A stretch of 64,000 bases of DNA, taken from assembly GCF_013167455.1 (NCBI RefSeq), contig NZ_CP038328.1. One strand, given 5' to 3'. This stretch comes from Escherichia coli O157:H7. Lineage in GTDB: Bacteria > Pseudomonadota > Gammaproteobacteria > Enterobacterales > Enterobacteriaceae. Positions within the stretch are counted from its first letter, which is position 1; each line of letters starts with the position of its first letter. A model generated the notes under the pieces. It made no database searches, was not told the origin of the DNA, and saw only the letters and a list, made by a program, of their open reading frames with translations. The position numbers and the translations under genes are program-made. This document shows positions 24,893 to 26,026 of this stretch, in pieces.

Positions 24893-26026
24893 TCACTGCT
24901 TTTTACAACCATTCCCCCAGGTAAAATGCTGCTCCTCCGGTGATGGCTGTGTCAGAAACTGCCATCCCGGAATAGCCACGCTGACCGCCAGCAATGCCGC
25001 ACAGACACCAGCCACAAACGGTTTCAGAAACGTGGGCGGGGATTTCTGAAGGGAGGGTGACTGCTCCGCCTGCACTTTCCCCTTGCGATTATCAAGGCTC
25101 AGTGCATCCAGACGCACCGCGCCATTTGCCGCAAGCAGCCCTTCCCGGTTATCCACGCTTCCCGGCAGACTCAGCGAAAAATCCCCTGTTCCCGTCTGAA
25201 TCAGACTGCCTTTACGATTTGACAGGCTTTGTGCCGATATCTGCAGTGTGTCGGCATTTATCGTACCGCCATTACTGCTGAACTGCCCGGCAGTCCGGGC
25301 GGAAAGCGTATCGGCACTCAGTTGCGCATTCTGTGTAGACAGATTTCCACTGGTTGCATTCAGCTCAGTATGTTGTCCCTGTATCCGGCTGTTACCTAAA
25401 TCCAGCCCCTGCTCAATGTCCCGTAAATCCAGCAGAGAACCTTCGTGTGCCGGGAATGAGGAATACAACTGAATATAGTCATCACTGTCCGGTGTCAGAC
25501 GCACATGTCGCACAACACCGGGAATAATAACCAGCCGGAGGATACCGCTTTTTAAATCCTGCGAAGGTGCCAGAACACGGGGGGTGACATAACCATGATC
25601 GACCAGACGGTTCTGCAATGTACTCATCAGCAGATTAATTCCTTTCGCCCCCAGGCAATGCCCGACCGCCCCGTTGGCGATTTTTTGTAAAGGCAGCCAG
25701 TGTGGTAACGCATCAGCCCCCTTCAGTTCCGTCTGTTTAATCTGAAAACAGGGCGTTTCAACAGGAAAATTAATCTTATGGGCAAAAGAGCCAGGTGCAG
25801 AAAGGCGAACATCAGGGGCTGAAGGCGTCAGTTGTTGCTCAAGGGCTTCCTGACGCTGCTGCTGAATGATAAATGCTTCATCTCCGCTACGCCGGACATC
25901 CGCTGCCTGAAGAGATAAAGGCGATAATAAAGCAGACATCAGTGTCAGTGACAGCAAGGACGGACAGCGCCGGAATAAGCTTTGTTCCTCAGTCCTCTCG
26001 TTCCTGCAACATAATTTTCCAGTCAA
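24893..26026 (-). pseudogene. ShlB/FhaC/CdiB-family two-partner-secretion transporter N-terminal region fused to FHA/CdiA-like repeat sequence; probable deletion remnant
   Basis: 377 aa; signal peptide and POTRA-like region (...[14 protein letters not shown]...[12 protein letters not shown]) but no beta-barrel; C-terminal part has repetitive N/S/T-rich segments. Confidence 0.45.

Follow-up and report, generated by a model that had tools for sequence, protein, structure and literature searches.

An intact reading frame in the tellurite-resistance/iha island (SpLE1, OI-43/48) of EHEC, adjoining tRNA-Ser, is very probably (we put the chance at about 0.88) a relic without function, left by a contact-dependent inhibition (CDI) locus of class IV type that once lay in the variable cargo region of this ter/iha island. 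The frame was studied in the window, a 64,000-nucleotide (64-kb) stretch of the Escherichia coli O157:H7 contig NZ_CP038328.1, where the sequence around the ORF matches E. coli O157:H7 chromosomes at 100% identity. It consists of the 5′ end of cdiB, an internal piece of cdiA and an internal piece of a VasL-like gene, and it closes on a short novel tail (Table 1). The initial annotation of the window had proposed a deletion that fused cdiB-like and cdiA-like genes. That deletion is borne out to the base, by a junction with a 12-bp microhomology and a loss of 2,985 bp relative to four intact loci, but the proposal overlooked that the frame is tripartite and took at least two deletions and a third breakpoint to form, that cdiC was lost along the way, and that POTRA2 was truncated.

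The frame has gone by several names. Read from the TTG at 26026 it encodes 377 aa; RefSeq starts it at the ATG at 25939 and so records a product of 348 aa, WP_001345400.1, as a "POTRA domain-containing protein" in a non-pseudo record. In comparative-genomics papers of 2007, ECs1382 is called a "HecB-like protein" (PMC2323221, PMC1890555). Among the literature on ECs1382, Z1640, and cdiB together with O157 or EDL933, the "HecB-like" label occurs in CGH papers and the fusion is undescribed.

Table 1. Coordinates of the chimeric reading frame, its parts and related features (positions in the window unless a locus is named)
Feature	Position	Strand	Description
Whole chimeric ORF	24893..26026	(-)	WP_001345400.1 = ECs1382/Z1640
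Segment 1, cdiB 5′ end	25401..26026	(-)	CdiB residues 1-180 from ATG, 1-209 from TTG
Junction 1	25401..25412	(-)	12-bp microhomology GCAGGGGCTGGA; intact loci have it in cdiB and again in cdiA
Segment 2, internal cdiA fragment	25058..25412	(-)	CdiA residues ~437-554; L009 23094-23448, 98.9%
Junction 2	25058..25059	(-)	2-bp overlap CA, no filler
Segment 3, internal VasL-like piece	24927..25059	(-)	Residues ~220-264, native frame; L009 36600-36732, 95.5%; L003 91%
Junction 3 and tail	24893..24926	(-)	vasL homology ends at 24927, followed by 11 novel codons and a stop codon
Empty IS629 target site CCA	26063..26065		37-39 bp upstream of TTG
Falsely split loci	L009 19582-30804; L004 and L007 5461-16800; L011 2461-12327		RefSeq features versus continuous ORFs

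Make-up of the reading frame

Segment coordinates were mapped against the intact locus of strain A2 (L009), and the junctions against four intact loci, those of UTME-12, Rb-3, A2 and STEC2018-607. The first segment belongs to an aligned block, 25401-27856, that matches L009 17660-20120 (island backbone plus cdiB) at 96.8%, and its encoded N-terminal 180 residues are 95.6% identical to the 550-aa CdiB of A2 and ~99% identical to the full-length CdiB P0005. What remains in it is a putative signal-peptide region, POTRA1 and a POTRA2 broken off at profile position 40 of 56. In Pfam terms, POTRA_2 is complete (aa 94-170, E=2e-21, positions 1-76 of 76), while POTRA_3 (aa 172-209, E=5e-9) is matched over profile positions 2-40 of 56 only, against 2-56 of 56 in intact CdiB. 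The barrel domain PF03865 gives no Pfam match in the ORF, whereas in intact A2 CdiB it spans aa 230-543 with E=8e-110; the description of a POTRA-like region without a beta-barrel thus stands. The only solved structures matched are those of CdiB, 6WIM (aa 48-227) and 6WIL (aa 61-209). By inspection, a hydrophobic, signal-peptide-like stretch runs over aa ~21-42 and ends LQA/AD, available only with the TTG start, as the ATG start leaves 13 of its residues. Compared with CdiB/TpsB proteins (ShlB/FhaC/HecB; EC93 CdiB 6WIM), then, the chimera has a putative signal region, POTRA1 and the start of POTRA2 but lacks the last third of POTRA2 and the 16-stranded barrel PF03865, and without the barrel there can be neither outer-membrane insertion nor translocation of a partner.

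The second segment, read in the native cdiA frame, encodes FHA-1 type beta-helix repeats that in CdiA lie just downstream of the TPS domain (tblastn identity 91%) and that make up ORF residues ~210-323. The filamentous-haemagglutinin 20-aa repeat model TIGR01731 (NCBIfam) is matched with E=6e-11 and 42 bits against a cut-off of 18, best over aa 279-314; Fil_haemagg (Pfam) alone stays below threshold in the ORF. The ESPR signal and the TPS domain PF05860 are both absent from the ORF by Pfam. Of the ~3,000 residues of a class IV CdiA, the chimera keeps ~118, and it lacks the ESPR, the TPS domain, the receptor-binding domain, the lipidation site, FHA-2, VENN and the toxin. The initial annotation's description of the C-terminal half as FHA/CdiA-like holds for this segment, on both the repeat model and the cdiA DNA match, but not for the last ~55 aa (25059-24893), which are VasL-like and end in an 11-aa novel tail.

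The third segment carries the single transmembrane helix of the VasL-like protein (Kyte-Doolittle 19-residue peak 2.1). Set against the T6SS-associated proteins of the VasL/ImpA_N family, in which PF06812, a transmembrane helix and PF12486 follow one another, ORF residues ~324-366 correspond to the linker and the helix, in native frame. Neither ImpA_N (PF06812) nor VasL (PF12486) is found in the ORF by Pfam, although both are found in the intact-length relatives L009 and P0003; in the chimera, the helix would probably have to insert in the opposite orientation. The homology then stops at junction 3, which is the edge of a helicase module standing in place of the vasL 3′ end, a breakpoint common to O104:H4. 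The chimera as a whole gave no PADLOC match.

Measured against the intact loci, the first deletion removed 2,985 bp, namely two-thirds of cdiB at its 3′ end, the whole of cdiC and the first 1.3 kb of cdiA, which encodes the ESPR and TPS domain. The second removed ~13,153 bp by comparison with A2: the rest of cdiA, cdiI and the orphan VENN/DUF596 modules were lost, and with them the GIY-YIG nuclease and 3′-5′ exonuclease genes, small ORFs and the 5′ 657 bp of the vasL-like gene. Because junctions 1 and 2 both preserve the frame, a single ORF of 348/377 aa survives. It was probably produced in three steps. First, a deletion of 2,985 bp joined cdiB codon ~180 to cdiA codon ~437, probably in a RecA-independent, microhomology-mediated way by slippage or annealing at the 12-bp repeat, the repeat itself being observed. 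Second, a ~13-kb deletion with a 2-bp overlap, putatively by illegitimate recombination, brought cdiA codon 554 to codon ~220 of the VasL-like gene. Third, the vasL-like 3′ end was later replaced by the helicase module at 24927. If translated, the product would be Sec-exported, with a periplasmic POTRA1, a broken POTRA2 and a short piece of beta-helix, and the VasL-derived helix would presumably tether it to the inner membrane. Since the 16-stranded barrel, the TPS domain, the receptor-binding domain, the toxin, CdiC and CdiI are all missing, neither two-partner secretion nor any step of CDI would be possible for it.

Parent loci, carriers and sibling fusions

Intact loci stand at the same place in a related island backbone, in the order cdiB, cdiC, cdiA, cdiI, followed by orphan modules. 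Their cdiB, cdiC and cdiA are uninterrupted ORFs, with a CdiB of 550 aa and a CdiA of 2,973-3,045 aa. In A2, cdiB is a continuous ORF of 550/579 aa with POTRA_2, a full POTRA_3 and the ShlB barrel; cdiC encodes a 175-aa HlyC-family acyltransferase; and cdiA is a continuous 3,005-aa ORF with the ESPR, the TPS domain at aa 68-330 and FHA repeats. Class IV cdi loci are defined by a cdiC cistron between cdiB and cdiA (PMC8510554), and by this arrangement of genes the parent locus is of class IV type, cdiB-cdiC-cdiA-cdiI. The likeness to the class IV CdiA of STEC_O31, CdiA-STEC4 (PMC8510554), lies in the shared cdiC cistron and not in an alignment to the STEC4 sequence itself; Ntox25, the toxin type of STEC4, is found in the sibling fusion P0094. 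Of the two origins offered by the initial annotation, a CDI or a haemolysin locus, the gene order supports the former and not the latter.

Beyond the orphan modules, the intact islands continue with a GIY-YIG nuclease gene, a 3′-5′ exonuclease gene, small ORFs and the VasL-like gene, ~13 kb downstream of cdiA, and then with ibrA and ibrB. The VasL-like product has an ImpA_N domain, one transmembrane helix and a VasL domain. Its gene stands alone on the island, far from any type VI secretion cluster (L009 35942-37279; L003 8327-9674; L008 13144-15686), and is broken in every copy examined, by a stop codon in A2, a frameshift in ESY001 and two IS3 insertions in UTME-12.

The surroundings of the ORF are themselves variable. 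Comparison with L003, L005, L006, L008 and L009 marks the interval ~20000-26600, between the DUF4222-side backbone and ibrA/ibrB, as a hotspot whose cargo differs by strain and includes cdiBCAI, the GIY-YIG and 3′-5′ exonuclease genes, an ATP-dependent nuclease, a KAP NTPase, the Qat anti-phage system and the helicase module. In the window, an SF1 helicase gene occupies 21972-24652 (-), with AAA_11/AAA_12 and a DUF2726 nuclease-like domain and with MkoA/MkoC-like matches in PADLOC; a 1-nt deletion near 24160 splits it into ORFs of 171 and 722 aa, and it is intact, at 893 aa, in O104:H4. This is probably a decayed defence-type gene. Farther along, a copy of IS1 (insA/insB) at 29562-30259 lies between the remnants of a CPBP-family endopeptidase gene and an alpha/beta-hydrolase gene, an arrangement shared by O157:H7 references.

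How widely has the chimera travelled? A query spanning junction 1 was covered over at least 80% of its length in 491 of 5,426 complete E. coli genomes (~9%), and the full-coverage matches were all at least 99.5% identical among the matches listed; junctions 2 and 3 are present in 492 complete E. coli genomes. Carriers of junction 1 include O157:H7, O145, O111 and O39 strains, and an uninterrupted ORF 5′ end with its upstream region is found in O26 and O103 strains as well. The frame seems to be dispensable. FRIK 920, an O157 strain of lineage II, lacks the 10.8 kb around it, and ECs1382 is present in 0% of lineage II strains (PMC1890555). A second IS, IS1203/IS629, is inserted within the ORF in UTME-4 and OK1. 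In 30 of the 30 best-matching genomes listed, mostly O157:H7, a 1.3-kb IS629 flanked by a CCA duplication sits at the site that is empty in the window. The window may represent the state before that insertion, or a strain or lineage without IS629.

Whole-protein coverage, among 968 homologues, comes only from copies at least 97% identical; the remainder are CdiB proteins of 550-579 aa with a barrel, matching the N-terminal 43-66% only. A conserved, full-length family with this order of domains would have spoken against a fusion, and none was found in that set. Near-identity across ~9% of genomes may be owed to a young island that carried the chimera along, and not to selection, and the sharing of junctions fits deletions of one origin that would then have spread with the island. 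A second allele of the chimera, P0002, is 97% identical to P0001 and the window ORF and has the same junctions. Its cdiB part bears the substitutions of another intact cdiB allele (A2-like MSVLL...DIRRSGEDTF), which suggests that its 5′ end was replaced by homologous recombination after the deletion.

The order of events can be partly read from relatives. In P0003, a protein of 554 aa from a public assembly, junctions 1 and 2 occur together with a complete VasL C-terminal domain, so that deletions 1 and 2 predate the third breakpoint. That there were two separate deletions rather than one complex event is something we infer, because no genome with junction 1 alone was seen among the genomes compared. 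H89, considered as such an intermediate, was rejected on finding an intact locus with a fragmented annotation. Other, independent cdiB′ fusions exist, namely cdiB′::vasL in MS8345, O104:H4 and P0009 and cdiB′::VENN-Ntox25 in P0094, and decay at the cdi site has thus been repeated, with sibling fusions at other breakpoints.

Degraded cdi loci and orphan cdiA-CT/cdiI modules are a known pattern of decay in E. coli. The chimera resembles them in being deletion-eroded within a mobile island and in having sibling variants with other breakpoints. It differs in that no CT or immunity module is left and in that the relic is the in-frame product of three genes and not a truncated cdiA. The initial annotation had supposed that an orphan immunity gene might survive among nearby small ORFs; none was found. 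Deletion 2 runs from cdiA codon 554 directly into the VasL-like gene and took with it the remainder of cdiA, cdiI and every orphan module. When the UTME-12 CdiI, two orphan-module proteins (including DUF596), the VENN orphan and the nucleases were run by tblastn against the 64 kb, only the three chimera segments matched, and UTME-12 CdiA found the FHA fragment only. No VENN occurs in the six frames of the window; a six-frame scan for VENN, VDNN and LYVN returned two chance LYVN matches, in stop-containing frames or an unrelated context. Pfam on eight neighboring ORFs found DUF4222, an HTH and helicase domains, none of them CdiI-like, and the small upstream ORFs are island backbone that is also present beside intact loci. 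Toxin, VENN motif and immunity gene are all missing from the window. A novel immunity family may formally be possible, immunity families being very diverse, but position argues against it.

Alternative explanations

The first alternative bears on how the junctions arose. Instead of simple microhomology slippage, IS629- or IS3-mediated adjacent deletion, or IEE-promoted excision, could have made them, as might be suggested by the IS3-family copies within the vasL-like gene of UTME-12, by the IS629 that adjoins the ORF in most O157 strains, and by an overlap of only 2 bp at junction 2. SpLE1 presumably also encodes an IS-excision enhancer, which we counted on the same side. However, neither junction 1 nor junction 2 shows an IS end sequence or filler bases, the 12-bp direct repeat at junction 1 is enough for slippage or single-strand annealing, and the chimera occurs without an IS in O26, O111, O103 and O145. 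An IS origin is therefore unlikely.

Second, the fusion may have been exapted, as an in-frame neo-protein expressed from the cdiB promoter and given a new job, either as a membrane-tethered periplasmic POTRA that binds TPS domains and so modulates another TPS pair, or as an envelope decoy. There is something to be said for the idea: the reading frame is unbroken across both fusion junctions, POTRA1 is complete, the signal peptide is plausible, the C-terminal transmembrane helix is strong, the chimera has been kept in 491 genomes, and the upstream region is uninterrupted in the window and in many non-O157 EHEC. A possible client is also at hand, as O157 Sakai has another TPS pair, ECs1282/1283 (PMC2323221). 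The intact frame in itself is weak evidence against a relic, because the chance that both junctions fall in frame is ~1 in 9. Moreover, POTRA2 is truncated, diverged homologues with the chimera's architecture are lacking, many strains have IS elements within the ORF or directly upstream of it, lineage II O157 lacks the region, and the sibling fusions with their different breakpoints point to random decay.

Expression also weighs against exaptation. In RNA-seq of EDL933 under 11 conditions, the values for Z1640 and its duplicate Z1200 lie at 0-5, where expressed genes reach tens to thousands (PMC4048457 Table S4), so that the gene is essentially untranscribed there, with the qualification that EDL933 bears the IS upstream and has two identical gene copies, for which multi-mapping may depress counts. 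The part of the proteome supplement PMC3210124 that was available contains no entry for Z1640, ECs1382 or HecB, a weak negative. A scan for the sigma-70 consensus on the minus strand upstream of the ORF gave no match, which is uninformative either way. In the window, the native cdiB upstream region is free of IS629, and transcription may be possible there. Taken together, exaptation appears improbable, and its most specific form has a slimmer prospect still: that in IS629-free strains the chimera is made, and that an inner-membrane-tethered POTRA captures TPS domains, thereby damping or regulating another pair or triggering envelope signaling. If true, the POTRA tether would be a new gene that arose from the ruins of three others.

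Third, a genuine short TpsB-like protein of native, conserved architecture, never fused, might be suspected from the non-pseudo RefSeq record and from older papers that list the gene as virulence-related. This is hardly credible and is refuted by the homologue coverage, in that those covering >66% of the protein are all at least 97% identical, and by the DNA matches of the segments, each 95-99% identical to a separate gene of intact loci with sharp breakpoints. Finally, the repetitive nature of FHA repeats can lead to mis-assembly, but an artefact of assembly or sequencing that joined unrelated repeats has a negligible chance and is refuted by the junction-spanning queries, covered over at least 80% in 491-492 independently finished genomes, with at least 99.5% identity among the full-coverage matches listed.

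Annotation and the lost CDI locus

The relic has a side effect on databases. In all four of the intact loci checked, RefSeq (PGAP) splits a continuous cdiB (550 aa) and a continuous cdiA (~3,000 aa) into "incomplete" pieces. The cdiB becomes a pseudo "POTRA domain-containing protein, missing C-terminus" followed by an internal-start "ShlB/FhaC/HecB" CDS, and the cdiA becomes three features, one of which is named "POTRA domain-containing protein" and the middle one of which coincides with the segment kept in the chimera. It would seem that the chimera's own protein record serves as annotation evidence and misleads the annotation of true class IV loci. Because of this false splitting, annotation-based surveys of CDI undercount intact class IV loci. 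The listing of ECs1382 as "HecB-like" and virulence-related, as well as the RefSeq record, should be treated as describing a pseudogene.

For the biology of these strains, decay of a CDI locus, our preferred reading, is an ordinary and well-explained case of gene decay in a mobile island and carries little biological weight. It does indicate that the ter/iha island of major EHEC lineages once had a class IV CDI system and lost it completely, and that these strains consequently neither deploy CDI nor are immune to it through that locus.
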